Shown: in pieces, positions 10,182 to 63,895 of the stretch
Position numbering within the stretch: position 1 is the stretch's first letter
Layout of the letters: every line of letters starts with the position of its first letter
NCBI GenBank assembly: GCA_051362555.1
Contig: CM120646.1
Location: forward strand, 7,626,001 to 7,690,000
Direction: 5' to 3'
Length of the DNA: 64,000 bases
Source: Lingula anatina
Lineage: Eukaryota; Animalia; Brachiopoda
Program-made: the position numbers and the translations under genes
The notes under the pieces: model-generated
Databases searched by the model: none
What the model saw: only the letters and a program-made list of their open reading frames with translations
Told to the model about the DNA's origin: nothing

Positions 10182-10239
<58 letters not shown>

Positions 10240-12014: not shown

Positions 12015-12045
<31 letters not shown>

Positions 12046-34047: not shown

Positions 34048-36425
34048 ATGAAGAATTTACATGTAAAACGTCGACCAAAACATACATGTATGCGCGGTGG
34101 AGGGCACGAATCCACGTTATTGGCTGTGGCATTGATATTCATGAGAATTGAAGGTGCGAGTGTAGTTATCTTTATCGCTATTGTTTTAAGACCATATGTT
34201 AACTCTAGTGGGGCTAAAGAATTGAATGTCACATTTGTTGTTAAGTGAGACAACATGAGTAAGCATACATATCCAGTACGTCAGGTCTATTTTTAGATAT
34301 ATTTATCAGTGACTAAAGGGGAATCCCCTTTTTAACTCTACGTCAGGAGGTTACAAAAACTCAACATCTTAAAGTACCCCCCTCTCCCTCCTTCACTGAA
34401 GTTATATCATACCGGTATGTCAACTACTTAATCCTGTCTGGAAACTCCAACACGACGGACGTGCTGGTCCAAAATCTCTTCCACTGGGTCTCAGTCAGTT
34501 GAGTGTGGTTATAGAAGACTCTGATCACATTAACCCCCATTAATATGTGTCTTGATATATAAAGTGATCAGCACTGCTATTAAAAGAGGTGCGTACAAGG
34601 TGAGTGATATGCTTCGGATAGCCAAAAAATAATGAAATAATGGTTAAGGAGGGGGTGGCAGTTGGCGCGCTGCCTTCACGTACATGGCCCAATTAAGCAT
34701 ATTCAGACATGCTTAAGTCCCGTTTACACTGAGCGGCGTCCTTTCAGCGTGTCGTAGCATGACCCAGTTTGAGAATAAAACAAATTATTATTTACGTTCC
34801 GACAACTGGCTAATCATTGCGCATTCATGATTCATTCTGCAAACAAGGCGATTCTACGACCACAGCGATGCCAGTTTCATAGCGGCACAAAGCAGTTTCG
34901 GATTACGGCAGGTCCTGAACCTCCTCCGGTTTCTGAAATAGAAATTTCACCAATATTCCCCTTTTGAAATTAGAATTTTGTCTAGCTAAATCATAGTTCT
35001 AAACAGCACCAAATAATACCGTTCACCTTCTAAAAAAATGCGGGGCCCCGCTTTGAACCCCACGCCAAAGGGAGAGAGCATCGGCTTCACATCCGAAGCC
35101 TGTCATTCCTAAAACACGGACCCCCCAGGCAAAGGACGCAAAAAGGAAGCCATCCAATGCAAATGGGGTTTAAGAGAAGTCAGGTGAGTATACTATTGTC
35201 ACCAATTACAACAACCCCATGGTGACTGACGTCCTGAAAAGCTATCTGTTAGAAAAGTATGCAGTTAATGTTACGCTCTCAATGACATTTCCGGTTTCAG
35301 TTTCAATTCTTTTTAAAATAGCTCATAAAAACTTTATTTTTCTAAGAATATTGTTAGATTTAAAAAACTAAATCGCAGTTTCATTTTCGTTTTAAATAAA
35401 CCTTTATTTATCTATATATTCATTTATTTACTTTTCATTGAATTTCATACAGATATTTCCAAGCAAAAACTTTTATGACATATTATATTATCATTGCTTT
35501 TTCAGATATATATTTTCCGTAAATATTTCCAAAGTATTTGGACTGTATTTGGGATTTGAAGTTTTAAAATAATTACAAACTTTAAGTGCTGGAGGAAAAA
35601 GACACTGAATTCGTTGACAAGAAAGGAAATTCAAAAATATACGGTTCAATTAAATATGACAAATATATTCCACATTTGAAATCCAATGCTGGTCTCGATT
35701 TCATATGTTCCCTCTATTTCAAACACAACCCCGAAAAAAGGGATTTCAGTGTTATGTTTGAAACCCCGTATTAAGGAGTAAAATTTTGCTGTTTTGTGTT
35801 CACTAATTAGGTGTAATACCCGCCCGAGTGCCGGTCGGTGGGACCTTTACCTACGTATGTCCTTCCATAAGCCATTGCGAGAATGTATCAACGCTCCTGG
35901 GAGTGACTTTCTACACCAAACCAAACTTCCTGTTGTTCACTAATGCCACAAATTATACAGAGTACGGTAAAAATTTATCAGTCGACTACAAGAACAGACT
36001 GTCTGCAGAGTACAGGCATCCTAACAGTGTGTTATATATACGGAACATAAGCTGCTCGGATCAGAAACTTTATAACTGCAGCGTACATTGCATAGGAAAA
36101 CCATTTCGCACTTTTACTGAAGATTTGGAAGTTTTAGGTAAGATCGGAGAAAATGTCTATGTGGTTAACGAGCGGCGCCTCTCTTTTAAACTTAGCTGTC
36201 AAACAGAATTCTTTTTTTCTCAGAATTAAAGGATAGGTCGTGCTCGTTAACGAGCTAATTAATTTTGCCTGACTTAATTAAAGTATTTCTTTGATTAGTA
36301 AGTGCACAACGTACTACATGTATTTGGGATGTATGTGGTAAGCATAATATTGTCTGATTTCAACCAAACACAAAAAACAAGAAAGAAAAGAAATACAGTT
36401 AATTATACCGCAATGCCCCTATCCA

Positions 36426-36456
<31 letters not shown>

Positions 36457-39400
36457 TACACACACACACACACGGAAGAAAAAGCAGTTACCTGTATATA
36501 AAGAGGTGAAGGCATGAACAGCATTTCCTGTTTTTTATCAGTTGACTCCGGTCAGCCGTCCATAGATATGAACGTTCTACACGATTCATCTGGTTTGGTG
36601 GAAATCCGTTGCTATGCAAAACTTGGCAAGCCTCCGAAAGCCATTGAGTTACTTCCAGATACCACAGGAATCAACAATTCTACGTTCGACAGTTGCTGCA
36701 GATATGGTGAAAGAAAAGTAAACGTAACGCTGAAGGCCGAAGATGATGGGAAAACTTTTAAATGCCGAGTGGAAAATAGATCGGATTCCGTAACATTTAG
36801 TAATTATCTTATAATTTTAACACTTACGCCTTATACAATTTCGTGACAGACGAGACTAGATTGCAAACTGTGCCTCTTAATTTTACCTCTCTCTCTCTTA
36901 TTTTATTTTAGTTATCATTATTATTATTATTATTATTATTTTTGTATATTAACATTGCAATTTCTCTTTAGTTGCAGCAAAAACTCCTCGAATAAGTCTG
37001 ATCATCAAGAGTGGTAACATAACACATACTTCAGGTGTTATCCGTATGGCGGAGCGATCTTCTATTGTACTAAATTGTTCATCGGAAGGGCATCCGCGGC
37101 CTTTTTACACATGGAGATTCGTGTCGACTGCGTCCAGCAGGGAAAAAACTGAAATGGGGAGTTCCTTGGAGCTAAAGCATAGTCCCAGTGGAGGTAATGG
37201 AACCTGGATATGTCAAGCATATAATTCAGCTGTTGTTCACCGTCCGACAGCCTCCATAAGGATTGAAATGTTACCTGTACACCGGTCGTCAGAAATGGGT
37301 ATGTACAGCAATGGAGCAGGTAGATGAGTATTTTAGCATCTTCATAACCAGTTATGCGTGAATTATGAAGAAGAAAAATGCACGTATAAACCTATTATTG
37401 AAGAAAAAGCAGCAGTTTAATATTTATTTCAATATATTTAAGGTGTAATATCAGATATCCGTTATCGCTATTATCCTGATATATGTATGAATATTTTTAT
37501 GACGGCAGATTATGTTTTCCTACATTCGTTATAAAAATTTCCGTACTGACTTTTATGTTTGCAAGTAAAGTCTTCTTTTTGAGATTTTTTTACCAGTTTT
37601 ATATTGTAAATATTCATAAAATGAAAAATAGTTGGGTCATGTTGAACATAAGTTTATACTTGGTTTCAGTAAAGTTTATTATTACTTTTATTATTATCGT
37701 TATTATTATTCACTATTTACAGTCACCTACGTTCTGTCTATACCGGTTATATTGATAGCAGGCAGCGTATTAACTGTTGTCGGCGGCATTGTCATCTTCA
37801 TCATCCGTACGAGGGTCAGAAGCACTCACTGTAAAAAGTCTACAACGGGCGAAGAGAGTACGTCTACTTTTATAGAATAAGGGGACATTCTAGATTATTT
37901 ATTTATTTATTTATTTTCTGAACTATCGTTAGATTAAACTGTTCGATAATTTAAATCAAGATTACCGGAATGTGATATTTTTAGGAAAAGTGTGGATCAT
38001 GTCTTTGTATAAGTGAAGCATGTGATAAAGACCGGATTTTAAGTATTTGTTTTTATCTATATGCTCAATTGAGTAGTGTTTCCAAATTAACTGGGTTAGA
38101 CTTTGATTTTAGTGTCGTTGAACCCAATGACCAGTATACATGGACCTGACCAAGAGATAAACAACATCCAAATGTAGGTTATAATGGGCTTTTGTTGATA
38201 TATTTACAAAATTTTATCAAATTGATACTGTAAATTTCCCCAACAGTAAAACTTATTAGTATTTCCGTTTATAGCATTATTTCACCAGCTCTGTTGTCGA
38301 AGATTTTTGTCATGAAAGAAAAAAGAAAAAAAGAAAGAAAGAAAACAAAAACAATATTACATGGTAATGTATGTTTTTTATAATCCAGGTGTTTATCTTT
38401 TCACAGTGAAGATGAAGGAGAGGCTGAAAATTACCTAACTCCTGTACCCAGGAGACCCATCCTCGGCGCTTCGGATACCCCTGTAGAGCAAGGCGTTGAT
38501 AGGCGAGACCCGCCATGCCGACAAGTTTCCATTATGGAAGAGATTGGGAGCGGGCACTTCAGTACAGTTCACAGAGCAAACTTGACAACAACCACCGGCC
38601 AAGTTGTCCTCGTGGCAGCAAAACTATGCAGAGGTTCGTGCTTTGTATCTTTGTTTACATGCAGTAGAACAGGCAATTGCATATAATAAAAACATTGTCA
38701 GTGTAACGTAACTGACATGTTAAATGTGATATTGTGCATTCTGCGTGTTTCAAGTTACCGCAGTGCTTGTTTCTGGATGTAGAGACAATTGGCAAACAGT
38801 TCTGAAGAACTCTGCAAGGCAGATAGAGGAGAAAACATCAAGTAATTTAAGTATACAGCTACTTTAGTTATATTTTCTTTTCATCAAATTGGTGGTGCAT
38901 ATGAAAAAAGGGAATTTGAACGAGAAGCCGAAATTATGAAGACAGTCGCCAAACACCCAAACGTCGTGGAATATCTGGGCTTTGCAGAATCGTCGGGTAC
39001 AGTAGTAATTCTGATAATAATATTTATGGATGAGGTATTATGGGCATTTGTCTATTGTAAAAACTAATTCTATGCTTATGACCCACCTTTTATAGTAAGA
39101 TCCTCCTTTGTTTGTAATGGAGTTGGTGGGTGGTCGTAGGGCGGGTCACAAGAATAATACCTTACTTGGCCTGATTCCTTCGGCAAATTTTATACAAAAG
39201 GTGACAAGGGCAATGTTATGATGCAGTACATTTACATTTTCATTCGTTGTGAGGGGAAAAGGGCTACTCTAAGTTTTTAAAGAGGAAGCCCCTATACATG
39301 CACGCATGTGTCTTTGTAGCCTATAGTTTCCTAAAGAGATGGGGGGGGGGGGGGCATTTACCTAGTACTTTCTGATACAAAAATGCACCGTCCCATCCAA

Positions 39401-41857
39401 GTCGGCTTACCATCATTATATGATATCAGATATTGTGATACATGTAAGACATCTTGATCATTTAGGTACATCAGTTCTCCTCCTTGAATTCGCCACTGAT
39501 GGTGATCTGCTCCATTTACTGCGGAACAGTCGTGATGTCGGCTGCTCATTACATCCGGGCAGTACAAAGCTGTCACTAACAGATCTAATTTCGTTTTCCC
39601 TTCAAGTTGCAAAAGGAATGGAACATATATCTCAGCTAAACGTAAGCATATTAACTCTTTAAAAAAGTTTTTTATGATAAACATTTGAGTGACACACGTA
39701 TTTCACTAAATATGGGCCCAGTATTGCTATACAGCGTCAAACAGTTTAAGGGTTTGAAAATTAAGTGTTTTAGGCTCAAGAAAATAAGTAAATACTGACA
39801 TTTTTAGAATGCACATACTGTCCACCTTCAGTAGCATGAATACTATTATTAATTGTTTTACCCTTTACAGAAAATCTGTGATATTGCAAATTTTCACCTT
39901 TTCAGAAACTAATATTTCTTTGCAAATAAGGCAATCAAATAACAGATTTCACGGCAACAAAAATGTCACTTGGAAGGTCTCCTTTAATTTACAGATAGCG
40001 ACATTTTACTGGCATATCTTTAGTGTAAATAACTTTTTATTTGCCAAAGAAGAGTACATCTCGTTGCGATTAGCAATAATGTAGAGTGTATTTTATTTGT
40101 TATTTTTGTTCTGTCACTGTAGTTGCTGCACCGAGATCTTGCTGCACGGAACGTCCTCATGTTTGACAACAGGGTGTGTAAGATATCTGACTTTGGACTG
40201 GCTAGGAATATAGCAGAGAGCAGACAGTATGAGAGGCAGACCTCTGTACGTAGAATAAAATTTCGCTCTACCCCTGATTAACTTAATTTAGGCATATATT
40301 GTCTTTTTAGCCGATACCAGTTCAACAAGAATACAGCAATGCTTGCAGTGCAATCTCTTAAACTTAATCTTTTTCTACACTGTTACCGAATTCAGCCAAT
40401 ATTTATCACCGGATGGTAATTTTAATATTACACAAATAACTGTTTTCTGTGGAAATGCAAAATAATGTATTTCTTTTTCATCTGATAGCGTATTGGGTTT
40501 AAATCGATTTCGCTCAAAATGCAGTATTTGTCGAGCTGTCAAAAATGCAAACCACTAAAACATATACGTCGACCATATATGAAAAAGGTCTAGGTTACGA
40601 TGCGTTCTGGTTTCTTGCCCCCACCCCAACTATGTCCGCCAATGCATTTCTAATTTTAGGGTCCACTTCCTGTCAGATGGATGGCCCCTGAGTCTCTTGC
40701 GGACAACATATACACTACTAGAAGCGATGTTTGGTCCTATGGTGTTTTGATGTGGGAGATTTTCACACTTGGTATGACATTGGATGAAAAAAATAGAATC
40801 ATTTCTTTGAAAAGACCAAGTACTACATAGATTTTGGGGTCTTGGCTCCAAAGTACATATTATGAAGGAACGGGTTTACTACAAGGGTTCTTTCTCTATT
40901 TTAGATATTTTAAATATATGTAAAAAAACAAGAAAACACTAGAGAGAAGGAATCCTTTGAACAATCTTAAAATCAGATTTCACATAATGTTTTTATGCAA
41001 GTACCAACGCCAACACGTGTTATTTACCATACTCGAAAAATGTACTGATATAAATATCCCTGAAATAATTTTAAACTCCACCACCAAATATATTTATATG
41101 ATACATTACACACGCATCAATTTGGTTTCATTTTGGATTTCCAGGAAGAGCCCCCTATGCTGGCTATAGCGGTGCACAGACTTTGGAGTTTGTTATAGCT
41201 GGCCGTACCTCTCAATACTTACGTAGACCAAGCTGCTGCAGTCCTGATATGTAAGTATAGTCTGCTTTATATATTCATTATTTTTTGTCATCTCCTTTGC
41301 TCATAAGTATTACTAATTTTGGTGTTTATCATTATAAACAATGGCCTCGACTCTGACACTCACACCCACCATCAGTTTTATGCCAAACAAGTAGGAAAAA
41401 ACAAAAGGCTGGGTGTAAGCTATCTGAAAACAATCACTTGGGAGTTGGAGCGGGGTATACTCTATATCTATACGTGATTTTGAAAGGCATCATAACTAAC
41501 TTAACTTCAGATGTCGGTACTTCTGGTCTAGTCAGAATATATAAAGAGCTCAGCTGTATGTGTCAAATCAACAGTAAAATGGGTACAGTCAAAGTGTTTG
41601 CTTGCTCGAGAGCGTGCTGCGTTCTTACCAGTTTGTTCAAAATTGATTTTAAAAGTTCAAGTGGTGCACATTGTAGCTGACATAAATATTCATAAATATT
41701 TACACGGCTATTTTGTTGTAATTCACTATTGTTTTCTTTCATATTTAGATACAGAGTGATGCAGCGCTGTTGGGCTGTGGAACCAGGAGCACGACCGAAT
41801 TTTCGGGCGCTAGCGAAAACTATATTCGCCATTTCCATCAGTACAAGTCACGTTTGA
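34048..41857 (+). CDS. Receptor tyrosine kinase with three Ig-like domains, copy 1 (~720-730 aa)
   Basis: Exons 34048-34153 (signal), 35811-36137 (Ig1), 36542-36799 (Ig2), 36972-37298 (Ig3), 37723-37857 (TM), 38113-38173, 38407-38633 (GSGHFS, VAAK), 38892(or 38868)-38996, 39466-39641, 40123-40245 ([11 protein letters not shown]), 40660-40771 ([15 protein letters not shown]), 41145-41250, 41749-41857 (CW...RPNF, ends TSHV*). Phases are consistent; the exon 8 acceptor is abnormal. Confidence 0.88.
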
Positions 41858-43899
41858 CTGCTAATCAGAGTAAAGCCTACGGGCTCTTACGAGCTGTTTG
41901 CGTCCAAATTTTGCGCAGAATCTCACGTCCCACGCAAGTCCTTCTTACGCAATTTCGAGTTCGCAGAACGCCTATAAGCACTTTTCAATGCACTTCAATA
42001 CAGTTTTATTTAGAAAACGTTCATCAAAAAGATTTTCAAGGATAAATCGGAAACTCGTCATATTCACATACATGTATGTACATGTACTTTCAAATTATCT
42101 ATACAGGATTCTGTGGGAGCTTAAGTGTGATAATTTTTTGAAACTTCAAGGAAATCAGTACTGATAGAATAAATTCTGATTTATTTTGTCCTGGTGAAAC
42201 CTTATTTTGCCTGGACTATAACACATAATTAAAAAACGGAGGATGACTAGTACAGCATGCAACAAACTATACGTTCTGTACCTTAAATATACTGAGTTGA
42301 CATTTGACATTCATTAACCAGCTTATAGAAACATGTATAATACTGATTAATTTTATACCGATGTATATAAAACTCTGTTTACTAGCACAACCAATCAAAG
42401 AGCAAAGTAACGCCTGAGTTACAACCGCCCTTACGGGCTGTTCGAGACAGAGAGCCATTGTGTACATGTATCACTTATTTTTTTTTTAAGTTCAAGGCTG
42501 TAAAAATGCAGTTAATAGACTAAAAATATCAAAATTTATTTTATAAATAACATTAGTTATAATTATAAAAAATGTATGTGACTGCAGAAATATGTATATT
42601 TTAGTACTTAAAACGTTTGCTTAAAAGCTATACCTGTACTACATTTTACCAGCTTTGTGTCCTTGTTTGTTATGTATATGTGTCACAAGTTTTCAACTGG
42701 TTGAATCCTTACTAAGAGAAGCCATTGCGGTGTGAATCGCAATATGTACATTCAGGCTATATGTGGCAGTTTAATGACAAACGAGACCTCCACAATATAC
42801 TTCAAAGGAGTTATCCTTCGTCTATGTCTCATCAAAAACACACAGTAACAGCGACTAGAACATTGTCTGCAAATAGTGAGGCAGTGAAAGCTGCAAGGTG
42901 TCATTGTTTTTCAGTATTAAGAATGACAGAATCTGTTTTTTTTTTTTTTATTCATTTTTAATTGGAGGGAGACTCACTTTGATCTTTCTATTTCATTCAG
43001 CTTAAAGTTGGTGGCAGTATAGGCTAAATCTGTCATGTCTGTATGTAGAATATCCCTTGCTCAAATGTCTACATTTATTGAGTGAATTATGAAGTTTCCT
43101 GACTGATTAATGAGGTTACTTGTAGAAATATCTTGCCTACACACAATTTATGATATTTTTTTACTACTTTATACATATGATTATTCACATCTCATCAGTG
43201 GTGTGTGAAAGGTACTTGGTATTTGCATTTTAGAACTGTAGATCTGTGTACCAGCAGGGTTATACTGCAGTAATAGCTGTGGAATTTTCTAAAATAAACT
43301 TGATGTTTATTAATTAATTGGTTTGAAAAAAATTAACAACCCAAATAAAATTAATTCATTTAATATTTCATTTAATCTGTTTTTATATTTTTCTTTTAAC
43401 TAAGCATTTAATCGTAACAGCTCCCGTCATTATACTGTTATTGTGTAATACTGTTGAAAGGTTCCAATTTTTTTTATTAACAGGATGGTGCATATGTATT
43501 AAAAATAAATATAAGCATTACGGCATATTTTCTTACTGAAATATATCAAATGCATCACCGGTATTATAATGGTAGAGATACAGGTAAAGATGACAGCATT
43601 GATAATTGGGTTTACAGCACTGTTACTGCAGCATGGTTAGTGTCAGATTGGTATCTGTTAATGCCACTGGACATTCCTCTCGATTTCTGACCAAATCTAA
43701 TAAAGCCTCAGTTGCTTAACTTTTGCCACATTTCCAATATCTACAGGTTGTAGGCTACGTGTTGTTTAATGCTTGGGGTCTCTTCTCTGTCGGCCGTTAA
43801 TCGGGGACACCTGTGCAGCTTTGCTAGTGCCACATTTTCCATTGCCGTTTACATCAAATTTGTGAATAGAATGAGGAATAATGACAGTAACCTTATGGG

Positions 43900-44145: not shown

Positions 44146-44357
44146 TATACATGCAGTATTTATACGTGCATGTGTTTTATTATTTATCGACGAAGTGAAA
44201 ACTATAACCGTTCCGATTGGTAAAAGCCCCAGCACTGAGGATATGGTATGTGAGCTTCCACATTATACATGCACATACGTAAATCAGGAAGCTAGGTGAG
44301 GGGTGGAGGGTATTTCATGAGCGAGCGATGCACTCTCCATTTGGTGCTACAGTATAA

Positions 44358-44793
44358 CACCCAATTTCCATAGATTAGATCGACCTACTTAAGATTGACC
44401 TAACTCCCTGGGGGTTCACGCTAAATAGCTGTCAGCCGGGCGAACACGAAAGTTAATTACCCCCTTACAGCTTGTAGTAGGCGGGACGGACATTTAAGTC
44501 GGATTATCTGAAAGTAATCTAGTGAGACTCCCCGCGGGGATAGATCGATCTAAAATATATGGGAATAGAGCCTTACACCCCATTTCCATAGATTAGATCG
44601 ACCTACTTTAGATCGACCTAACTCCCTGGGGGTTCACGCTAAATAGCTGTCAGCCGGGCGGACACGAAAGTTAATTACCCCCTTACAGCTTGTAGTAGGC
44701 AACACGGACATTTAAGTCGGATTATCTGAAAGTAATCTAGTGAGACTCCCCGCAGGGATAGATCGATCTAAAATCTATGGGAATAGAGCCTTA
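44358..44793. mobile_element. Head-to-tail dimer of a 218-bp MITE-like unit
   Basis: 44358-44575 and 44576-44793 are near identical; each has inverted ends (atttccatagattagatcga / tcgatctaaaatctatgggaat); absent from the paralogous site at ~56400. Confidence 0.8.
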
Positions 44794-45515
44794 GATACGT
44801 GTACTGTCTAAGGCACAGATGTATTGGTTTTTCGTCAAAGCATAATGCACATAATTTTACCCCGATAACAAAATAGAGAGTCGAGAAAGGTCTATAGGTC
44901 TATAAGTTAAAAAAGAAAATAACAGTACACTATTATTTGTTGAATTACAGCCAGCTCACGTAACCAAGTGAAAGGGAAACAAGGCTGTTTTTTTTCCAGG
45001 CCAGAAATAAACACATTGGTAAGGGTTTCAAGGGGCGGGTCCAGTTTTATTACAAGGGGGGTCGAAAACGACACACCTCGGATGCGATGTCGACCATCAC
45101 CCCCATGGTGTGGGGTTTGAGGCCTGCTCAACGGCCCCGACAAAAAATGTGTTTTGGAAAGCAAATAGTGCCCTTTGGTACGAACTATGATTTAGCTAGT
45201 CAAAATTCTAGTTTCAAGAGGGGAATATTGGTGTGATATATTTTTCAGAAACCAAATTTTCAGGACCCCCCTGTCCCCCCTCTAAATCTGCCAGTGGTTT
45301 CAATTTGCAGATAGGTCTGAAAATTTGATGGAGATACCCTTTGAGCCCACATGGGATCACGTGTGGAAATACCCACCCAGAAAAGGAAGCGATAAAATTA
45401 TACACCCCGAAACGAAAGACGACATTTTTATAGAAACATTGATGTATTTTGTGTCGGTACTCCGGTACGCTAATATTAATGAAGAGACTGTACATTATAA
45501 AGGGAAGCAGCTCAA

Positions 45516-48008: not shown

Positions 48009-48067
<59 letters not shown>

Positions 48068-48483: not shown

Positions 48484-48525
<42 letters not shown>

Positions 48526-49500: not shown

Positions 49501-49544
<44 letters not shown>

Positions 49545-52500
49545 GCCTATTATCTGGATTATCGTTACATATAACTGTGCGATAATTCTAATCAAGATTG
49601 CTTTAATGTGATGTTTTAAGGAATTATGTGGATCATTTCTTTGTATAAGTGAAGCAGGTGACAAAGACGGAATTTTAAGTATTTGCTTTTTATCTTTATG
49701 CTTAACTGAGTAGTGTTTTGAAATTAACTGGGTCAGACTTTGATTCTAGTGTCGTTGAACCCAATGACCAGTATACATGGACCCGACGAAGAGATAAACA
49801 ACATTCAAACGTAGGTTATAATGGGCTTTTGTTGAGAAATTTACAAAATTTTATTAAATTGATACTGTAAATTTCCCCAACAGAACAACTTATTAGTATT
49901 TCCGTTTATAGCATTATTTCACTGGCTAGCTAAGAAAACAAAGACAACATCACAACGTAATGTATAGTTTTTATAATTGAGGCGTTTATCTTTTCGCAGT
50001 GACGATGGTGGAGAGGCTGAAAATTACCTAACTCCTGTACCCAGGAGACCCATCCTCGGCGCTTCGGATACCCCTGTAGAGCAAGGCGTTGAAAAGCGAG
50101 ACCCGCCATGCCGACAAGTTTCCATTATGGAAGAGATTGGGAGCGGGCACTTCAGTACAGTTCACAGGGCAAACTTGACAACAACCACCGGCCAAGTTGT
50201 TCTCGTGGCAGCAAAATTATGCAGAGGTTCGTATTTTTTAACTTAGATTACATACTGTACTTATTTGTAATAAAATATTGTTGGAATAAAATATTGTTGA
50301 AATGTTAACGCAAACTGACATGGTAAAGTTGTTATTGTGGATTTTACATGTTTCTAGTTACCGCAGTGCTTCTCTCTGGGTGTTGAGACAAATTGCCAAA
50401 ATTCTGCAAGGCAGGTAGAAGGGAAAACATCAAGTAATTAAAGCATACCGCTAATTTAATTGTAGTTTCTTTTCATAAAGGTGGTGCATATGAAAAAAGG
50501 GAATTTGAACGAGAAGCCGAAATTATGAAGACAGTCTCCAAACACCCAAACGTTGTGGAATATCTGGGCTATGCAGAATCGTCGGGTACAGTACTAATTC
50601 TGATAATAATACTTATGGATGAGGTATATTGGACATTTATCTATTGTAAACATTAATTCCATGACTTATGACCCACGTATTATAGTAAGATCCTCTTTTG
50701 TTTGAAATAGAGTTGGAGGGTGGTCGTAGGGCGGGTCACAAGAATGATACCTTACTTGGCTCGATTCCTTCGGCAAATTTTATACTACAGGTGACTAGGA
50801 TAATGTTACGATGCAGTAAATTTACCTTTTATTTCATTGTGAGGGGAAAAGGGCTACTCTAAGTTTTTAAAGAGGAAACCCCTAAACATGCACGTATGCG
50901 TCTTTGTATAGTTTCCTAAAGAGATGGAGGGGGGGGGGGGGGGGGGCATTTACCCAGTACTTTCTGATACAGAAATGCACCGTCCCATCCAAGTCGGCTT
51001 ACCATCATTATATGATATTAGATATTATGATACATGTAACACATCTTGATCATTTAGGTACATCAGTTCTCCTCCTTGAATTCGCTACTGGTGGTGATCT
51101 GCTCCATTTACTGCGGAACAGTCGTGATGTCGGCTGCTCATTACATCCGGGCAGTACAAAGCTGTCACTAACAGATCTTATTTCGTTTTCCCTTCAAGTC
51201 GCAAAAGGAATGGAACATATATCTAAGCTAAACGTAAGCATATTAACTCTTTAAAAAGTTTTTGTATGATAAATTTTTGAGTGACACACATATTTCACTA
51301 AATATGGGCCCAGTATTGCTATTCAGCGTCAAACAGTTTAAAGGTTTGATAATTAAGTGTTTTAGGCTCAAGAAAATAAGTAAATACTGACATCTTTAGA
51401 ATGCACATACTGTCCACATTCAGTAGCATGAATACTATTATTAATTGTTTTACCCTTTACAGAAAATCTGTGATATTGCAAATTTTCACCTTTTCAGAAA
51501 CTAATATTTCTTTGCAAATAAGGCAATCAAATAAAATATTCCACGGCAACAAAAATGTCACTTGGAGGGTCTCCTTTTATTTACAGAGAGCGACATTTTA
51601 CTGGCATATCTCTGGTGTAAAAAACTCTTTGTTTGCCAAAGAGGAGTACATATATCGTTGCGATCAGCAATAATTTAGAGTGTATTTTATTTGTTATTTT
51701 TGTTCTGTCACTGTAGTTGCTGCACCGAGATCTTGCTGCACGGAACGTCCTCATGTTTGACAACAGAGTGTGTAAGATATCTGACTTTGGACTGGCTAGG
51801 AATATAGCAGAGAGCAGACAGTATGAGAGGCAGACCTCTGTACGTAGAATAAATTTTCGCTCTACCCTTGATTAACTTAATTTAGGCATATATTGTCATT
51901 TTAGCCGATACCAGTTCAACAAGAATACAGCAATGCTTGCAGTGCAATCTCTTAAACTTAATGTTCTTCTACACTGTTAGCGAATTCAGCCAATATTTAT
52001 CACCGGATGGTAATTTTAATATTACACAAATAACTGTTTTCTGTGGAAATGCCAAATAATGTATTTCTTTTTCATCTGATAGCGTATTGGGTTTAAATCT
52101 ATTCCGCTCAACATGCAGTATTGGTCGAGCAGTCAAAAATGCAAACCACTAAAGCATATACGTCGACCATATATATGAAAAAGGTCTAGGTTACGATGCG
52201 TTCTGGTTTCTTGCCCCCACCCCAACTATGTCCGCCAATGCATTTCTAATTTTAGGGTCCACTTCCGGTCAGATGGATGGCCCCTGAGTCTCTTGCGGAC
52301 AACATATACACTACTAGAAGCGATGTTTGGTCCTATGGTGTTTTGATATGGGAGATTTTCACACTTGGTATGACATTGGATAAAAAAAGAAACATTGCTT
52401 TGAAAAGACCAAGTACTACATGTACATAGATTTTGGGGTCTTGGCTCCAAAGTACATATTATGAAGGAATGGGTTTACTACAAGGGTTCTTTCTCTATTT

Positions 52501-53479
52501 TAAATATTTTAAATATATATAAAAAACAAGAAAACACAAGAATGAAGGAATCCTTTAAACAATTTTAAAGTAGATTTCACATAAAGTTTTTATGCAAGTA
52601 CCAACGCCAACATGTGTTATTTACCTTACTCGAAAAAAGTACTGATATAAATATCCCTGAAATAATTTTAAACTCCACCACCAAATATATTTATATGATA
52701 CATTACACACGCATCAATTTGGTTTCATTTTGGATTTCCAGGAAGAGCCCCCTATGCTGGCTATAGCGGTGCACAGACTTTAGAGTTTGTTATATCTGGT
52801 CGTACCTCTCAATACTTACGTAGACCAAGCTGCTGCAGTCCTGATATGTAAGTATAGTCTGCTTTATTTATTCATTATTTTTGTCATCTTCTTTGCTCAT
52901 ATATATTACTAATTTTGGTGTTTATCATTATAAACAACGACCTCGACTCTGACACTCACATCTACCATCAGTTTTATGCCAAACAAGCATGAAAAAAATG
53001 AAAGGCTGTGTGTAAGCTATCCGAAAAACAATCGCTTAGTAGGATTAGGATTGGGGTATACTCTATATCTATACGTGATTTTGAAAGGTATCGTAACTAA
53101 CTTAACTTCAGATGTCGGTAATTCTGGTCTAGTCAGAATGTTATGACATATAAAGGGCTCAGCTGTATGTGTCAAATCAACAGTAAAATAGATACAGTCA
53201 ATAGTGTTTGCTTGCTCGTGAGCGTGCTGCGTTCTCACCAATTTCTTCAAAATTGATTTTTTAAGTTCAATTGATGCTGACATAAATATTCATAAATATT
53301 ATTGGCCGTAAACTACATAATTTACACGGCTATTTTGTTGTAATTCACTATTGTTTTCTCTCATATTTAGATACAGAGTGATGCAGCGCTGTTGGGCTGT
53401 GGAACCAGGAGCACGACCGAATTTTCGGGCGCTAGCGAAAACTATATTCGCCATTTCCATCAGTACAAGTCACGTATGA
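45516..53479 (+). CDS. Receptor tyrosine kinase with three Ig-like domains, copy 2 (~721 aa, apparently intact)
   Basis: Exons 45516-45615, 47401-47727, 48144-48398, 48607-48933, 49327-49464, 49750-49810, 50000-50226, 50481-50585, 51058-51233, 51717-51839, 52256-52367, 52742-52847, 53371-53479. All are GT-AG; total 2166 nt in frame; catalytic motifs intact. Confidence 0.92.
49501..49543. repeat. (ATT)n microsatellite
   Basis: Direct inspection. Confidence 0.95.
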
Positions 53480-56400
53480 CTGCTAATCAGAGTAAAGCCT
53501 ACGGGCTCTTACGAGCTGTTTGCGTCCAAATTTTGCGCAGAATCTCACTTCCCACGCAAGTCCTTCTTACGCAATTTCGAGTTCGCATACAGCCCGTGAG
53601 CACTTTTCAATGCACGTAAATACAGTTTTATTTAGAAAACGTTCATCAAAAAGATTTTCAAGGATAAATCGGAAACTCTTCATATTCACATACATGTATG
53701 TACATGTACTTTCAAATTTTCTATACAGGATTCTGTGGGAGCTTAAAATTAAGTATGATCATTTTTTTTAAACTTCAAGGAAATCAAAACTGAGAAAATA
53801 AATTCTGATTTATTTTGTCCTGGTGAAACCTTATTTTTCCTGGACTATGACACATAATTGAAAACAGGAGGATAACTAATAGAGCATGCAACAAATTATA
53901 TATTCTGGAGCTTAAATATACTGAGTTGATATTTGATATTCATTAACCAGCTTATAGAAACATGTATAATGCTTATTGATTTTATTCCGGTGTATATAAA
54001 ACTCTGTTTACTAGCACAATCAATCAAAAAGCAAAGTAACGCCTCAGTTACAACCACCCTTACGGGCTGTTCGAGACAGAGAGCCATTGTGTACATGTAT
54101 CACTTATTATTTTTAAGTTCAAGGCTGTGAAAATGCGGTTAATAGAATAAAAATTGCAAAATTTCCTTTACAAATAACATTAGTTATAATTATAAAAAAT
54201 GTATGTGACTGCAGAAATATGTATATTTTAGTACTTAAAACGTTTGCTATACCTGTACTACATTTTACCAGCTTTGTGTCCTTGTTTGTTATATGTGTCA
54301 CAAGTTTTCAACTGGTTGAATCCTTACTAAGAGAAGCCATTGCGGTGTGAATCGCAATATGTACATTCAGGTTATATGTGGCAGTTTTATGACAAACGAG
54401 ACCTCCACAATATACTTCAAAGGAGTTATCCTTCGTCTATGCCTCATCAAAAACACACAGTAACAGCGACTAGAACATTGTCTGCAAATAGTGAGGCAGT
54501 GAAGGCAGCAAGATGTCATTGCTTTTCAGTATTAAGAATGACATAATCTGTTTGTTTTTTTTTTAATTTTTTATTCATTTTTAAATGGGAGGGAGACTCA
54601 CTTTGATCTTTCTATTTCATTCAGCTTAAAGTTGGTAGCAATATATGCTAAATCTGTCATGTTTGTACCGGTATGTAGAATATCCCTTGCTCAAATGTCT
54701 ACATTTATTGAGTGAATTATGAAGTTTCCTGACTGATTAATGAGGTTACTTGTAGAAATATCTTGCCTACACACAATTTATGATATTTTTTTTACTACTT
54801 TATACATATGATTATTCACATTATTAATTAATTAATTGGTTTGAAAAAAATTAACCACCCAAATAAAATTAATTCATTTTATATTTCATGTAATCTGTTT
54901 TTATTATTTTTCATTTAACTAGGCATTTAATCATTACAGCTCCCGTCATTATACTGTTTTTGTGTAATAATGTTGAAAGGTCCCAATTTTTTATTAACAG
55001 GTTGGTGCATACGTATAACAAATATATATAAGCATTACAGCATATTTTCTTACTGAAATATATCAAACGTATCACCAGAATTTTACTGGTAGAGATACAG
55101 ATAAAGATGATAGCATTGAAAATTGGGTTTACGGCACTGTTAGTGCAGCATGGTTAGTGTCAGATTGTTATCTGATAGAGTTTGCTCCTAGTACCTGGGA
55201 ACAAAAGGTCTGGGACTTGATAATCAAGTTGATAAAATCGCAAAACGCCGGTAGAGAATAGAGCATACCTGCCCAACATTGATTTGTTCAGATTCTTAAC
55301 TAAGGGGTGCGTTACTTGAGTCGAGGGCCAAGACTTGAACTTAGGGGTTTGGCATGTCACTGTCGTGTCTGCCCAAATCTAATAAAGCCTCAGTTGCTTA
55401 ACTTTCGCCAAATTTCCAACATCTACAGGTTATAGGCCACGTTTGTTTAATGCTTGGGGTCTCTTCTCTGTCGGCGATTAATCGGGGACACCTGCGCGGC
55501 CTGCCAACGTAACTAGACCCAATTTTGCTAGTGCCACATTTTCCATTGCCGTTAACATCATATTTGTGAATAGAATGAGGAATAATTACAGTTATGAAAA
55601 AAAGGTTTGAAAGTACCTGTCACCTTCGCCACAGTAACCATATGGGCTATGCTGCCCCACCTCCACAGGCGACACCTTGCGGAGCAAGCCTGCGTAATCC
55701 GGGGTGCAACTGATAATAAACTTATCGCGCGACCCTATTAGCATCCCTGCTTCTCATGTGGACCCTGCAACTCGTAAGACACACTTGCCCCTTTTCATTT
55801 CAAACTTTCCTCTAACTTTACGAACTCTGCACCCTAAATTCGCAGGGGCGGTACGATCCTAAAATTCGTGCGTCCGGTTGTGACCGAGGCTTTATACATG
55901 TTTTGTTCTATATACACAATTCTACAGTAAATTACAGAAGACCCAAACTGAACAATACGTAACAAAACAAAGTGATACAGTGCACCAGTATACAAACTAG
56001 AGACATTAATGGTTGTGTGTCTTTTAAGATTATATTAAAATATAATATCGTGTATATGCACATTCATACACACATTTTCACATACAACCTCACACACCCG
56101 AAGGCGCACGCACACTGTAGTACACACAAAAAGTTATAATACAGGTACTCAGTCATTGAAATACATCTCTGTTCGGCGTTCTGTACATGTGCCAAACAGT
56201 TGTGTCTATACATGCATGTGTAATATTATTTACTGATAAAATGACAACAAACTATTATTAGATTAAAGCCCGAGCGCTGAGAATATGGTATGCAAGCTTC
56301 AACTTTGTACATGTACATACGTATATCAGGAAGCTAGGTGAGGCGTGGAGGGTATTTCATGAGCGAGCGATGTACCAATTTCACTCTCCATTGGTGCTAT

Positions 56401-56959
56401 TAAATACGTACATCTGCTGGCTTTTTGTTAAAACATAATGTACATAATTTTACCCGATAACAAAAAGGGAGTCAAGAAAGGTCTATAGGCCCGATATTGT
56501 AATGCATTTACCAGTATTTGTTGCAGTACAACACGTTAAACATGAAAATAATAATATACTATTACTTGTTGAATTAAGCCAGCTATATATACATGTATAT
56601 ACGATGTATAGGTCACGTGAACAAGTGAAAGAGAAACAAGGCTTGGTTTTTCCAGTTCGTAAAGGTTTCGATTTAGAGATATATCTGAAAGATTTAATTG
56701 AGGGACTCACCCTCTGAACACACTCCGGAGGTTCTTGGAGAAGGAATTAAGCGATCAAATTATATATCTTACATGTAGTCCGAATGTAAAGTCGTCAGCC
56801 GCGTAGACGGTCAGCATTCGCATATGTTAACATTCTTCTAGAAACATGAATATATTTGGTGTCGGTGCTATAACATAAATGAAGTGACCGTACGTTATAA
56901 TGGGAAGCGCCACAAATGAAGAACCTACATGTAAAACGTCGAGCAGATCATACGTCTAA

Positions 56960-57938
56960 AGCTACTCTTACAACCGGTCGTGCGTGCTTCTACGAGCGGT
57001 TTGCGTGCAAAAAATTGGCCAAGTAGTAAGATACACGCACGTGGAACGTACTGTTTTTGGTGGACACAAACACGACGCAAAGCACGCAGCCCGAAAACTG
57101 GCCGGCCAGTTTTTCGCTACAACCTGTCTGCGACAATTAGAACGCCTGGAGCACGCTCGTAGCACGCAAGACAAAAGTACTGAGTAAGTGCGCTAGGCGT
57201 GCGTGTAACGCAGGAAAAGCATGCAGAAATTCCGGGGTATTTTACCACGAAGACGTACTTACCACGCAAGAGACTCGTACGTTCAACTTGCTTTCAATGT
57301 ACGTGTTAACAAAAAGGGGGTGAGCGCATTTCCTCCGTGCGTTTATCTTACTTCCAAAGTGCGTGGCGAGTACTACTACCATACTTGTGAAGTGCGTCAC
57401 ACTAAGACGACGCACGTGCCCTGCACGATAAAAGTGCAGGCGATCCCGAGCAACCACTGCCAGAATTGCGTCACGATCTTCGGCCTCCTCTAGCATTAGC
57501 AGCTGTAGAAGTCGATGGCGCATCCTTCTTGGAAGTGCCATTTTGGAAGCTAAAACAGTAAATGATGAAGAGACTCGGTGCTCCCTTTTATTTCATTTTG
57601 ATTATCCGTGCGTTCCACTTCCGTGCTTATTACGTTTCTCTTACGTTTCTCTTACTTTCTGAAAACGTACGCATCACTTGCAATACACGTATGATTATCT
57701 CACTCACTGTGTGCGACACAAGTATAGATCGTACGTGCTCCTTACTTCTTCCTACTTCCAAAAAAAGGCGTACAGACCACTTGCGGGCCCCACGTTTAGA
57801 GCACAACACACCTACTCATAAAGTACTTACTACTTCGTCCGCTGCGATTTAATTTTCATCCTGCGACAACACTACGTCTGACAAAAACTCCGAGGACGCA
57901 CGATCTCTAAGCACGCACGACGGGTTGTAAGAGAGGCT
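56960..57938. mobile_element. PIF/Harbinger-type non-autonomous element, copy B
   Basis: Highly similar to 32513-33502; TAA TSD at 56957-56959 and 57939-57941. Confidence 0.9.
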
Positions 57939-58572
57939 TAAGGGAAAGCCCAATTTCACGTTAGTTTTGGTTGCTCTGATTTTCCTGATAGTTAAAGGTG
58001 AGAGCTAGCTATTATTGCTATCTTTATCGTTATTATTTTAAGACGATGGATAAACTCTAATAGGACTAAGATAAAAATTTTAATTTCACTCTTGTTGTTA
58101 AGTGAGACGACATATTATAACCATATACGTGCATTTTTACTTTCAGTTTGGCATAAATTTTCTTACGCCAGGTCTATTTTTAGAAGGCGTAGAAATTTAC
58201 CTGATAAGGGGAATCCCCTTCCTTGAGTCTCTATAGATGAACAGGTAGTCGTAAACATTCCACAGTCTAAATCAAAAACCCACGTACGTAAGGAACAAGG
58301 GATTGAAACTTCAATCTTTAAAACATAAAATGTCTTTATTGAATGCAGGCCTTTTGTCTGATCCGCGCTCGGTCCGTAGACACAAAGGCGTCAAAACTTC
58401 AATTCTTATCACAAATGTAACAATTTAAACAACTTTTATAAAACGCTATAGGTAAATCTCTACGCTTTAAGGTGAATCAATATTTAGTACAATGCATGCT
58501 GCTGTATGGATTTCTAATGTATAAATAGGGAACCTCGTGGTAGATTCGCTCACATTTTGCGCGTTCAAGACC

Positions 58573-60432
58573 ATGAATGAACCACGCTTAGAACCGGGCG
58601 TAAGACGGGGGCATGTGCTTGTTATCCAAGGTATCAAAGGTATCGATATCAAAAACAGAGAGAGAGAGAGAGAGTCATGGCGAATTTGTTTGGCGAAGTT
58701 GGAGGAGGGACTGTCGCACCAAATTAAGGACGAATGCATTCAACGACGGAGTTCAAATTCGGGTGGCAAATATGAATGATGCGCGACATAACCACCCTGA
58801 AGACGATTGTATGACAAGCCGCATTAATATAAGACGGGCGGTGCCGGCAAGGAGGGTCTATGCCGCAGACGTTTCAAGAATGCATCGGCAAGGTGGAGGG
58901 GACCGTCCGCCCGTGCCATCAATGGCGTCTGTCAGAACCTGCATAAAAAGGGTACGCCGGCAAGCACTGCCACCTATCCCACAGGGGATAAATGATGTGA
59001 AGATTGAGAACCAGTGGGGTCAGACCTGGAACCGTGAGGAATTTTTGCTCTACCTGGACAACCAGTGGGGAGTTTGTGTGTTTGCGACGGCAGAAATCTG
59101 AACATTTTGCGGCATTGTCAAACAGTGTATATAGATGGAACTTTTCGTGTATGCCCGAGGCCCTATACGCAATTGCTGGTTATTGTTGGCAATTTCCATG
59201 GGTATGGGCTGCCACTAGTCCATGCCTTGATAGGCCAAAGGACCGTGGGTCACTATAGACAAGTGCTTCAAGCGGTGTGCAGAAGGACGAGGGAACTTAC
59301 CCACCACAGATGGAGACCAACATTGGTTGTGACAGACTTTGAAATAGGCTTGCAGAATGCAGTCCATACGGAAATCCCAACTGCAGACGTACGGGGGTGT
59401 TATTTTCATTTTTCCCAGGCTCTCTGGAGGAAGATCCAGGAGATTGGCCTTTCAAATGCGTACATAAACAATGACCGAGTGAAGGCTCTCGTTCGGAAGG
59501 TAATGGCGCTTGGCTACCTGCCACTCCCTTTGGTGCGCCTGAATTATAATCTCCTTCTGCAGGAAAGGGGCACTCGGCGCCAAATGAGGAGGACCCCTGC
59601 TTTACAAGAATTTTTACAGTGCGTGTCACTCACGTATGTAGATCGAGGAGCTACGTTCAACATTCCTTCGTGGAACGTATTCAAGAGAGGGATGGAGCAG
59701 AGGACCAACAACATAGTGGAATGTAAGTTTTTTGCCGTTTTTCTCACTTTTGTATTACCCCCCCCCCCCTTGATATTGCCATTAACCTTTAATTAACTTC
59801 TATACCACGCCGTAACTGTCCAAAACACTCATGCTAAGTCGAAAATTAAGCTTTAATTTCACCGGTGAAGGGAATCAACCTACTGAAAAAGAGCCCTTTT
59901 TATAAATTCTTATCTTATATATCTTTTCTTTTTCGCAGATTTTAACTCCCTATAATAGTTATAAATAATGAAATTTTCGCTATGCCTTGTGGCATATCAA
60001 ACGGTAGTAAAAAAGTATTTGAAAATTAAAAATTGGGTACTATCTATAACTTCGGTTTATTTTGTTTTACCCACTCTCACGAGGAAAATTATGAAGAGCT
60101 ATTACATTTCCGAATAACATTTCCTATTTATCAATTTTCAATGAATTATTTCCTTTTTGGCACTTTTTTTAGCAATCCATCGTGCCTTCAGTGGGGCCGT
60201 ACAGGTGAGGCATCACATGTTCTGGAACTTTCTCAGACATCTGAAAGACCAACAAGCAATCACAGAACAACAGATCACAGCTGCTCGAAATGGTAATGCG
60301 CCACCGCCACGCAATAGAAAGTGGAGGGATTTGTAGCGAAGAGTTGTCAACCTGAAGAACCAATACAACAACGGGGCGCGTAACCTTGATGACAATTGGA
60401 TGGCCGTGGCTCACTCTGCTTGGGACCCTTGA
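58573..60432 (+). mobile_element. FLYWCH-MULE (Mutator-like) transposase pseudogene with one intron
   Basis: FLYWCH-like WR.C...CRTKLRT...HNH, then YIDGTF, LPLVHAL, VTDFE, GCYFHFSQALWRKIQ, RTNNIVE|gtaagt (59723), and a second exon from ~60173. Frameshifts at the (GA)n run ~58660 and at ~59095; premature TAG at ~60334. Confidence 0.88.
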
Positions 60433-62581
60433 TAGAACTGAAGCCCAGATATTTAACTGTATTGCATAGTAATTTACGTTATCTTATATTACATTTGTTA
60501 AAAAAACATTTCATGTTTTTTATCAGAGAAAAATTTAACGATACCTCACTAGAGAGTGTTTTTATGGTAAAAACAAATGGACATTTTCACAAGAGTGATT
60601 TTATGTGTTACATTGTTTTTCTGTTTGTTATTAGTATATTACATTTGTTACAAAAGACAGAACTTGATGTTTTCCATGAGATTGGAAGTAGACGATATTT
60701 AACTGCAAAGGTTTTTTTTTGTTTGTTTGTTTTTGGTAAAAACAAATGGAAATTTTCTCACGAGTGTATCTACTTTTTGTATAGTACGTTTTGCTTCGTT
60801 TTATTGAATTTGTTACCAGGGACAGCGTTTTTGATGTTTTTCATCAGATTACAAGTTAAACTGTTTTAGAATATTTCAACATGTTCAAACTGCCTTCTCA
60901 CTTGTATTTTACATTTAATAAATAAATAAATAAATAAATAAATAAATAGGCCCTCCGGTTAAGTATTGCGTTGTCCTATTTCTATTTCAGATTATAAACG
61001 TTTCAGCACCTTCAGTAATGCTGGGGAAGAGGGGGTAGACTTAAATATGTATTACTATTACTGGGTATTTGAGCATATTACTGTATTCTGATACAATTTT
61101 ATGTCGAAGTTTAAAGCCCTAGTAAGGGCAAAGTTTGTTCTCGTAAATGCTCGTAATTTGTATTTATATGCCAAGTTTACACTCCCGTTAATTCATCCTC
61201 ATCCCCAAGAGTAATGCAACACTGTTGTCGGAACGGGTTTTTTTTTTTTTTTTTTTTTTTGGGGGGGGGGGGGGAGGGGGGGCTGTGCGAACAATGGTAG
61301 CGAACAATGGTACCGAAAGTCAGGGAAAGATACACGAGCAAATATTGAGCAAACAATTGGTTGCAGCCCCCTCCCCCCGCTTCCGACGGGCCATTGAAAA
61401 CAACATAGTTTTACATACTTTAAGTAATGTGTAGGTTGGGAGAACTCAAACTAAATGTAAAAGTGCTCTTGGATAGTTCGGATTGATGATTTAGAACAAA
61501 AATGGACTGGTAAAATTAAGTCCAGAAAAAATGCAGTTTACCCGGGTGAAATTCGTTTTCTAAGGGAATTCGCGCCTTTTTTTTAGAGCTTACCGTCCCG
61601 TAGTATGGTCCCTTTTGAAAGTAAAACTAATTATTATTCACTTTCCGACAACTGGCCAATCATTGAGCATTCATTCTGCAAACAAAGCGATGGCAGGGGG
61701 TGTCGGGGGGGGGGGGGGTCCTGAACCCCCTCCGGTTTCTGAAATAGAAATTTCACCAATATTCCAATCCCCTTTTGAAATTATAATTTTGTCTTGCTAA
61801 ACCATAGTTCTAAACAGCACCAAATAAAACCGTTCACCTTCGAAAAAAATTCGGGGCCCCGCCTTGAACCCCACGCCAAAGGGGGAGAGCATCGGCTTCA
61901 CATCCAAAGCATGCCATTCCTAACGGACCCCTCCCCCCCCCCGGCAATTGACACAAAAAGGAAGGCAGCCAGTGCAAAGGGGGTTTAATTGAAGTCATGT
62001 GAGTACTATTGTCACCAATTACAACAACCCATGGTGACTGACGTTCTGAAAAAAGTTATCTGTTAGAAAAGTATGCAGTTGTATGTCACGCTGTCAATGT
62101 CAATTCCGCTTTCAGTTTCAAATCTTTTTAAAACAGTTTATAAACACTCTATTTTTCTAAGAATATTGTTAGATTATAAAACTGTCATTCTTTGCTAGTG
62201 GTGCACTGCAGGGGGGGGGGGGCATAACAAGAATGTAATTTAAATTTAGATGGCCAATCAAATTATAATGACATCGTGTATGTCTCAATAACAAATCAAA
62301 GAAGCTGCATGAGCAAGGTGGATGCTGTTATAATAGCAAAAAAAAGAGAAAAAGCAGATAAATCGAAAATACCGTCAAAATGGCGTCCATTTTTGTGGAA
62401 TTCCGACCCTACCTCTTTTAGGAACAGTTTGTTGTTGCAAAGGAAAATCATTTCACACTTTTACTGAAGATTCGGAAGTTTTAGGTGAGGACGGAGAAAA
62501 TGTCTATATGGTTAACGAGCGGCACCTCTATTTTAAACTTGGTTGTCAAACAGAATTCTTTTTTCTCAGAATTAAAGGATA

Positions 62582-62940
62582 CAGTAGCGACTTTTAAAAA
62601 TCACTGTTGGCAAGTTCTTATACTTAAAATCTCCGTATCAGAGTAGAGTGATCAAAGTAGAGTGAAGCCACCGCGCATTAAAGGTCAATTAACGCTTGGA
62701 CGAACACTTAATTGCGACCACGCTCACCTTCGATCTTTATCTCAGCGAGCTAGGGTTAGGCTCTTTTGTTAGCAGAAAGTTTGTCACGATAATTGCCGGA
62801 CGGGCAGGGTATGGAACTATTGTTAACAGAAACCAAACAGCGTATGGATGACAATGTTATTTCCATAGTTACCGAGCCAGGCCGTCCGTACAACCCGCAG
62901 CGACCCGGAGGGTAAGTAAGGGGAGATTCCGGCGGCACTG
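62582..62940. mobile_element. 359-bp insertion at a TA site (Tc1/mariner-like non-autonomous element)
   Basis: Copies 1 and 2 read aaaggaTAggtcgt; copy 3 reads ggaTA-cagtagcg...cggcactg-TAggtcgt. Confidence 0.8.
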
Positions 62941-63140
62941 TAGGTCGTCCTCGTTAAGGAGCTTATTAATTTTCCCTGACTTCATTGAAGTATTTCTTCG
63001 ATTAGTAAGTGGACAACGTACTATTTGCGATGTATGTGGTTGGCATAATATTGTCCGATTACGACCAAAAAAAAAACAAGAAAGAAAAGAAATACAATTA
63101 ATTATACGGCAATGTCCCTATCCATCTTTCTGTCTCTGTC

Positions 63141-63200
<60 letters not shown>

Positions 63201-63895
63201 ATGCGCAGAAGAAAAGCAGTTACATGTATATAAAGAGGTGAAGGTATGAACAACATTTCCTGTTTTCTATCAGTTGACTCCGGCCATCTGGTTTGGTGGA
63301 AATCCGTTACTATGCAAAACTTGGCAAGCCCCGAAAAGCCATTGAGTTACTTCCAGATGCCAAAAGGATCAACAATTCTACGTTCGACATTTGCAGCGGA
63401 TATGGTGAAAGAAAAGTAAACGTTACGCTGAAGGCAGAAGATGATGGGAAAACTTTAAAATGCCGAATGGAAATTAGATCGGATTTCGTAACATTTAGTA
63501 ATTATCTCATAATTTTAACACTAACGCTTTATACAATTTCGGGACAGACAGTTATTCTGAAAAATGCAGGGGGTTCTTCTTGTTAGATGTTGATGACATT
63601 TTATGGATATATACATTTGTATATAAATTCATACCCTAAAATCCTCGTGCTATTGATAACCTCTCTCTCTCTCTCTCTTTATATATCTATCTGTCTCATA
63701 TGCCCCATCATTTTTTCTCTCTCTCATGTTAGAAATAAAACTAGATGGTGTCGATGGGTAGCCATCGCATATCCCCGCACTTCCCCATATTATCAAGAGC
63801 AGCTCACCCCTAGGGATCACTTACCACACACCCACGTACACACGCACCTACACACACACATACACACAACTCACTGCTTCATCCAAAGGTATAAA

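Follow-up and report, generated by a model that had tools for sequence, protein, structure and literature searches.

A 64,000-nucleotide stretch of the brachiopod Lingula anatina genome (contig CM120646.1, positions 7,626,001 to 7,690,000; hereafter the window) contains two tandem copies, A and B, and the remains of a third, C, of a gene for a receptor tyrosine kinase (RTK) with three extracellular immunoglobulin (Ig) domains. Judged from the sequence, the patchwork of similarity between A and B is likely to derive from gene conversion, and there is modest evidence that selection keeps the exon of the distal domain, Ig1, different between the two copies. By exon structure and kinase phylogeny, the gene is a V-C2-I immunoglobulin RTK of a Lingula-only clade and not an FGFR.

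Self-comparison of the window revealed a direct duplication of 9.5 kb (34007–43190 and 45475–54821, 87.6% identical) and third-copy fragments scattered over 56.9–63.55 kb. Exon models derived from the sequence via GT-AG sites gave 13 exons each for copy A (34048–41857) and copy B (45516–53479), both on the forward strand, with open frames of 723 and 721 amino acids, respectively; every splice site of copy B is GT-AG. The exons encode, in order, a signal peptide, three Ig domains, a transmembrane (TM) segment and a short juxtamembrane segment, followed by seven kinase-side exons. Pfam assigned Ig1 to V-set (weakly), Ig2 to CD80-like C2 (weakly), Ig3 to Ig_3/I-set and the remainder to PK_Tyr_Ser-Thr. 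In copy A, the exons are located at 35811–36137 (Ig1), 36542–36799 (Ig2), 36972–37298 (Ig3), 37723–37857 (TM) and 38407–41857 (the seven kinase exons). The Ig1 and TM exons of copy B are at 47401–47727 and 49327–49464, respectively. The ectodomain has 13 N-glycosylation sequons in copy A and 8 in copy B. Ig1 has five cysteines, and a Phe replaces the Trp that is usual in the C strand of V domains.

Residue differences between A and B amount to 33/109 in Ig1, 12/85 aligned positions plus a one-codon gap in Ig2, 4/109 in Ig3, and 10/318 in the second juxtamembrane and kinase exons. These values agree with an earlier note on this DNA, which had counted 13/86 for Ig2 and about 10/320 for the kinase side. 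The Ig1 exon is indeed less alike than its flanking introns, as the same note had suspected: mismatches are 66/327 (20.2%) in the exon versus 150/1645 (9.1%) in intron 1 and 34/397 (8.6%) in intron 2 (Fisher p = 2e-8). Several features had escaped that note. The TM exon exceeds Ig1 in divergence (19/45 residues, 31/135 nucleotides), A/B divergence reaches 16, 17 and 24% in introns 4, 5 and 7, respectively, synonymous divergence in Ig1 is no lower than nonsynonymous divergence, and copy A has no AG acceptor at the second kinase exon. Compared with A, the TM exon of copy B has an additional cysteine in the TM segment and two additional juxtamembrane tyrosines, changes that could alter dimerisation or docking.

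Segmentation of the A/B divergence by the Bayesian information criterion, run blind to the exon annotation, resulted in seven blocks, three of which are high: 35795–36144 (20%), 37305–38425 (16%) and 38636–38876 (25%). The first is flanked by blocks of 9% and 6%, and its ends fall 16 and 7 bp from the ends of the Ig1 exon; in a post-hoc count, a 350-nt segment fits both exon ends this well in 20–76 of 8827 placements (0.2–0.9%). The second block, of about 1 kb, contains the TM exon. The third corresponds to intron 7 (38634–38891 in copy A) between conserved exons, a pattern expected from purifying selection, while the Ig1 block shows the opposite pattern, with the exon more divergent than both neighbouring introns. 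An exon-confined divergence peak is described as a mark of selection resisting conversion (PMC3924837; PMC2588116).

Introns differ strongly from one another in their A/B divergence (chi-square p = 2e-30). Identical runs outstrip those of every one of 2000 permutations, and this holds also for the 6863 non-exon columns. An L. anatina database protein that shares exons with A and B from Ig2 onward, XP_013400754.1, alternates block by block between residues of the A and the B type (11 runs over 41 sites, p = 0.013); over its TM exon it has 0/45 differences from B and 19/45 from A. Since 12 of its residues are found in neither copy, as is the case for 6/76 in Ig2, it represents another allele or copy. 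These observations indicate that gene conversion or unequal exchange shaped the patchwork. The kinase exons, introns included, are homogenised, with a synonymous divergence (dS) of 0.05 and introns only 3–8% apart. Because kinase silent sites and introns are alike as well, the A/B contrast appears to reflect mostly recent homogenisation and not only protein constraint. The counts behind the earlier description of a hypervariable Ig1 beside a near-invariant kinase hold, but with so low a kinase dS and an equally divergent TM exon, the contrast is largely that of a conversion mosaic.

Codon-model estimates for Ig1 were 0.28 for dS, 0.23 for nonsynonymous divergence (dN) and 0.84 (about 0.54–1.53) for dN/dS. 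The corresponding dN/dS values are 0.43 for Ig2, 0.27 for Ig3, 1.69 for the TM exon (0.82–5.3, not significant) and 0.28 for the kinase. The Ig1 ratio is above that of the kinase (0.84 versus 0.28, p = 0.036), and Ig1 synonymous sites are more divergent than the flanking introns (p = 1e-4). Half of the picture that the earlier note had tied to a plain conversion mosaic is present: synonymous divergence of Ig1 is raised, but its dN/dS does not fall far below 1, and no such rise is seen in the introns on either side. An M1a/M2a-type pairwise site-mixture test gave a likelihood ratio of 8.07, with ~16% of codons at high dN/dS. Among 200 null simulations each, this ratio was reached by 0, 3, 7 and 23 at 0, 4, 8 and 14% doublet mutations, respectively; the introns fit ~4–8% doublets, which places p at about 0.015–0.035.

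The Ig1 fold was modelled from an 8-sequence alignment to which six other V domains had been added, giving a confident model with a predicted local distance difference test (pLDDT) value of 91.7 for copy B, while a 2-sequence alignment gave 37.9. The model matches the V domains of nectin, CD166, TIGIT and SLAM, and Atlas agrees. The best fold matches are CD166 (Z 14.6, root-mean-square deviation 1.8, 98 aligned), 3alp (Z 14.4) and nectin-1 (TM-score 0.79); identity to the matched V domains is 10–17%, and many V domains tie. A PDB sequence search with Ig1 returned weak matches only. The blocks of change that the earlier note had seen in Ig1 are real; on this model they fall on C-C', C''-D and F-G. 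The dN/dS of the front sheet is 1.2 versus 0.47–0.63 elsewhere (p = 0.005–0.048), and the partitions into loops resembling complementarity-determining regions and into all loops showed no excess.

Ig1 of copy B was predicted to form a homodimer through its GFCC'C'' face, with a score of 0.32 versus 0.02 for the best of 3 controls, a contact agreement of 100% and a pLDDT of 89. The score mark is one that 7/16 animal homodimers and 0/30 eukaryote single chains reached. In the predicted interface, 8/16 residues differ between A and B, against 25/92 elsewhere; the dN/dS of the interface is 1.4–1.6, not significantly above 1, and two of its residues have three different states across A, B and C. 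Candidate surface residues are 42, 44, 50, 52, 90, 92, 94 and 97 of the domain. The site-mixture test and the predicted homodimer face point weakly toward selection on Ig1; the lines are each weak and drawn from the same two sequences, and they agree in direction.

Both A and B have a signal peptide, an ectodomain, a single TM segment and a PK_Tyr_Ser-Thr domain. All motifs that we take to be the catalytic set are present, namely the beta3 Lys, the alphaC Glu, the Gly-rich loop and motifs spelled by a further 11 residues; the third Gly of the Gly-rich loop is Ser. On these features, A and B are RTKs with intact catalytic motifs and are predicted to be competent. Among 58 candidates, one kinase exon matched one protein only, XP_013400754.1 (P0006; 98% identity), which is annotated as 'FGFR-like' and is the only database protein of the A/B type at 90% identity. 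Its model begins inside Ig2, without the V domain and the signal peptide. A second L. anatina protein (P0008, annotated as 'ephrin type-B receptor 3') has the same V-C2-I-TM-kinase plan with a kinase identity of 51%, and it was the sole good ectodomain aligner among the best 120 of 4435 matches of XP_013400754.1 (E 4e-35; next 8e-6).

Kinase trees were built with FastTree (122 rows) and IQ-TREE (40 of those 122 rows); they held arthropod FGFR, Cad96Ca and mollusc orphan kinases and left out vertebrate FGFR, Ret, Tie and VEGFR as well as EXTK references. A, B, XP_013400754.1 and P0008 form one clade (support 100/99), whose nearest neighbours are the mollusc orphans (89/97, not starred). Arthropod FGFRs form their own 100/100 clade excluding A and B in the 40-row tree. 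FGFRs are characterised by an acid box between Ig1 and Ig2 and by twin activation-loop tyrosines; in A and B, Ig1 is directly joined to Ig2 with no acid box, and the activation loop has one Tyr. FGFR identity was rejected on these grounds. Cad96Ca/Stitcher was likewise rejected, as it constitutes a separate 100/99 clade and the ectodomain in the window is of Ig and not cadherin type. The database labels of XP_013400754.1 and P0008 are automatic names that the tree does not support, and the entry for the former should be corrected: the V domain is missing from its model, and the protein is no FGFR.

Tree, Pfam and fold matches support the earlier proposal of a lineage-specific family in which an intact tyrosine kinase is coupled to a V-set domain. 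The family is small so far, with two young open copies, one dead copy and one old paralogue known. A search for Ig1 relatives among longer proteins found 0/62 candidates, and a search against 1.84 billion representative sequences gave 5 weak matches (four of them Ig proteins of fish, the fifth an unrelated repeat), which is weak evidence of lineage restriction. A description of the Lingula family was not found in the open-access literature, a search whose reach excludes most subscription papers.

Copy C (56916–63550, forward strand) is dead, as had been claimed, and the birth-and-death turnover proposed on that basis is supported. Its signal-peptide exon is interrupted by a 1-kb insertion (56956–57939) that is 95% identical to an element at 32509–33503, both having imperfect terminal inverted repeats, and its intron 1 carries a broken MULE transposase gene (58676–60430, Pfam E 7e-13). 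Ig1 is reduced to its final 16 codons (62436–62485), and Ig2 has a 34-nt deletion and a Cys to Tyr change. Matches to Ig3, TM and kinase exons were not found for copy C within the window. In copy A, intron 7 ends in TTG, without an AG acceptor before the second kinase exon. Splicing at an in-frame AG located 24 or 33 nt before the intron end would lengthen the protein by 8 or 11 residues, respectively, ahead of alphaC. All three exon indels between A and B keep the frame, while 42 of 54 intron indels break it; copy A therefore appears to have been constrained for most of its history.

For transcription, four of nine listed RNA runs (X12, X15, X18 and X19) were sampled, at 6–26% of each. X12 and X15 have almost no depth on the receptor exons, which we do not read as silence; X18 and X19, from one study, have about 0.1–2-fold depth on the receptor. 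At least two spliced joints at predicted sites were found in X18: 3 reads connect Ig3 with the TM exon of B type, and 4 reads connect the juxtamembrane exon with the first kinase exon. Both fit a gene like that of XP_013400754.1 carrying the B TM exon, and a B-type gene is transcribed and spliced at a low level. Heavy RNA depth at 41.3–46.7 kb and 53.3–54 kb is due to repeats, with 72–92% of the reads continuing into unlike sequence. Within the first of these regions, two 218-bp tandem repeat units (44357–44793) collect RNA reads in the hundreds in each of the four runs, the majority continuing into other sequence.

The reading that we prefer, at about an even chance, is that A and B are tandem duplicates likely patched by gene conversion, and that selection has probably preserved the difference in their V exons so that each would bind another partner. 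The age of the duplication would be close to that of the blocks with the greatest divergence (dS or intron distance of about 0.25–0.3), and later conversion would have overwritten the kinase half, Ig2-Ig3 and introns 1–3 while sparing Ig1. Conversion may in this way keep one signalling output as selection keeps two inputs. Binding to an RTK generally brings kinases together, and trans-phosphorylation follows. In the manner of nectin-type V domains, the V domain is predicted to bind via its GFCC'C'' face, and its partner may be a second copy of itself; binding would pair two kinases for trans-phosphorylation. Possible biological settings include cell-cell recognition, defence and gametes. A bolder proposal, which we regard as quite unlikely, is an as yet undescribed, nectin-like Lingula family with a directly attached active kinase, in which conversion standardises the signalling half and the V exon serves as a selected, polymorphic, self-binding identity tag for self, gamete or pathogen recognition in a lophotrochozoan.

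Several observations weigh against the preferred reading. The selection tests rest on two sequences, the dN/dS of Ig1 as a whole domain does not exceed 1 (p = 0.59), and of the six structural partitions tried, three were not significant and none was significantly above 1. The enrichment of differences in the predicted interface has a Fisher p of 0.08 and a likelihood p of 0.03–0.06. The dimer score is exactly on the mark, and solved dimers of nectin/CD2-type V domains exist, so the prediction may simply reproduce known structures. Two further divergent blocks are present, and the TM block is not explained by selection resisting conversion; the TM exon repeats the Ig1 pattern without a ligand role. 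The observed spliced joints all fit the gene with the B TM exon and none is specific to copy A.

Other points on that side form the case for a neutral mosaic, in which Ig1, the TM block and intron 7 were missed by conversion, a dN/dS near 1 means weak constraint, and A is beginning to decay as C did. The dS of Ig1 equals the divergence of introns 4, 5 and 7 (p = 0.23), so Ig1 may merely be unconverted, and the ratios of 0.84 for Ig1 and 1.7 for TM are each consistent with 1. Conservation relative to the old paralogue P0008 is likewise lowest in Ig1 and TM (25% and 13%), the canonical acceptor of intron 7 is lost in copy A, and no A-type protein was found among the 120 listed matches. We nevertheless consider this explanation rather less probable, because the Ig1 exon is more divergent than its introns and the peak stops at both exon ends, which purifying selection cannot yield. 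The back-sheet dN/dS of about 0.5 and the frame-keeping indels imply that copy A was constrained, and the site-mixture test also speaks against neutrality. If the neutral account holds, A and B are an ordinary conversion mosaic.

A recognition receptor, as proposed in the earlier note, might serve in immunity or allorecognition; it would be highly polymorphic through balancing selection and similar to Hydractinia Alr except for having its own kinase. A V-set first domain with changes on the C-C'/F-G face is also what Alr2 has in its domain 1 (PMC8282982). The predicted self-binding of Ig1, the neighbouring pseudogene and the Ig2 residues of XP_013400754.1 that occur in neither copy are consistent with such a receptor, and the low or absent RNA in the four sampled runs would fit a cell-type-restricted gene. 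However, Lingula is to our knowledge solitary and non-fusing, with no obvious use for classical allorecognition, and A and B have no FN3 spacer and no pair of immunoreceptor tyrosine-based activation or inhibitory motifs (ITAM/ITIM) among the cytoplasmic tyrosines. The known family, made up of A, B, the dead copy C and the older P0008, also compares with 41 Alr genes (PMC11999971), and we judge this explanation unlikely. A last alternative, that the assembler placed both haplotypes of a single locus in tandem as A and B, would account for the single database protein of their type. It is very improbable in view of blocks 16–25% divergent, far above the 1–3% background suggested by shared-word counts, of three copies in a row with different spacers, of the lack of in-register duplication outside the receptor unit, and of the mixture of A and B blocks in XP_013400754.1.

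The joining of a variable V-type Ig domain to an RTK is not new in kind. The earlier note had held that variable recognition receptors lack a kinase; the sponge Geodia cydonium provides a counter-example, an RTK with a polymorphic V-type Ig domain and a proposed self/non-self role (PMC11926128). Like A and B, it joins a distal V-type domain to a tyrosine kinase, but it is described there with two Ig domains (V-C1) and allelic polymorphism over both, while A and B have three, and their divergence as paralogues centres on the V exon. FGFR/Ret-related kinases of uncertain function have expanded repeatedly and independently in invertebrates (EXTK; PMC3342872). The nearest tree rows to A and B are mollusc kinases of that sort, although the family described here is, unlike those lineage-specific expansions, small so far.

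Hydractinia Alr1 and Alr2 resemble A and B in having one exon per domain with V-set domain 1 encoded by one exon, in the variability of domain 1 on the C-C' side and in exchange with neighbouring pseudogenes (PMC9546547, PMC8282982). They differ in their FN3-like spacer and ITAM/ITIM tails, in lacking a kinase, in having alleles that number in the hundreds and in their demonstrated homophilic binding, whereas Ig3 of A and B leads through TM to the kinase, with no paired YxxL/I outside it. Membership of A and B in the Alr family was rejected for the absence of the FN3-like spacer and ITAM/ITIM tail and the presence of the kinase. Nectin, CD166 and the CD2-SLAM proteins share the V-domain fold and the three-Ig V-C-C layout but have no kinase. 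In primate red/green opsins (PMC3924837), exon 5 is likewise a one-exon divergence peak among homogenised introns of tandem duplicates; functional residues and population data are known there, while A and B offer two sequences and two further divergent blocks. The A/B pair may be an orphan RTK caught being shaped, with a shared kinase and a V exon held apart. If the V exon were polymorphic and self-binding, it would be a brachiopod recognition receptor merging sensor and kinase, a type for which one sponge case has so far been the main example.

The remainder of the window contains other repetitive and multidomain sequences. On the reverse strand, tandem units of ~380 bp at 1–3745, each with one EGF-like exon, are 75–95% alike including introns, probably reflecting concerted evolution in a multi-EGF gene. 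More EGF-like and C-type-lectin-like exons were recognised by eye at 5000–22100 on the same strand, along with a VWA exon at 21460–22083 (Pfam E 5e-42), and these likely belong to one or two multidomain extracellular genes. An array of 650-bp repeats occupies 15.9–18.6 kb. At 27138–30533, again on the reverse strand, an open LINE ORF2 of 1131 codons with RVT_1 and zf-RVT domains looks recent.

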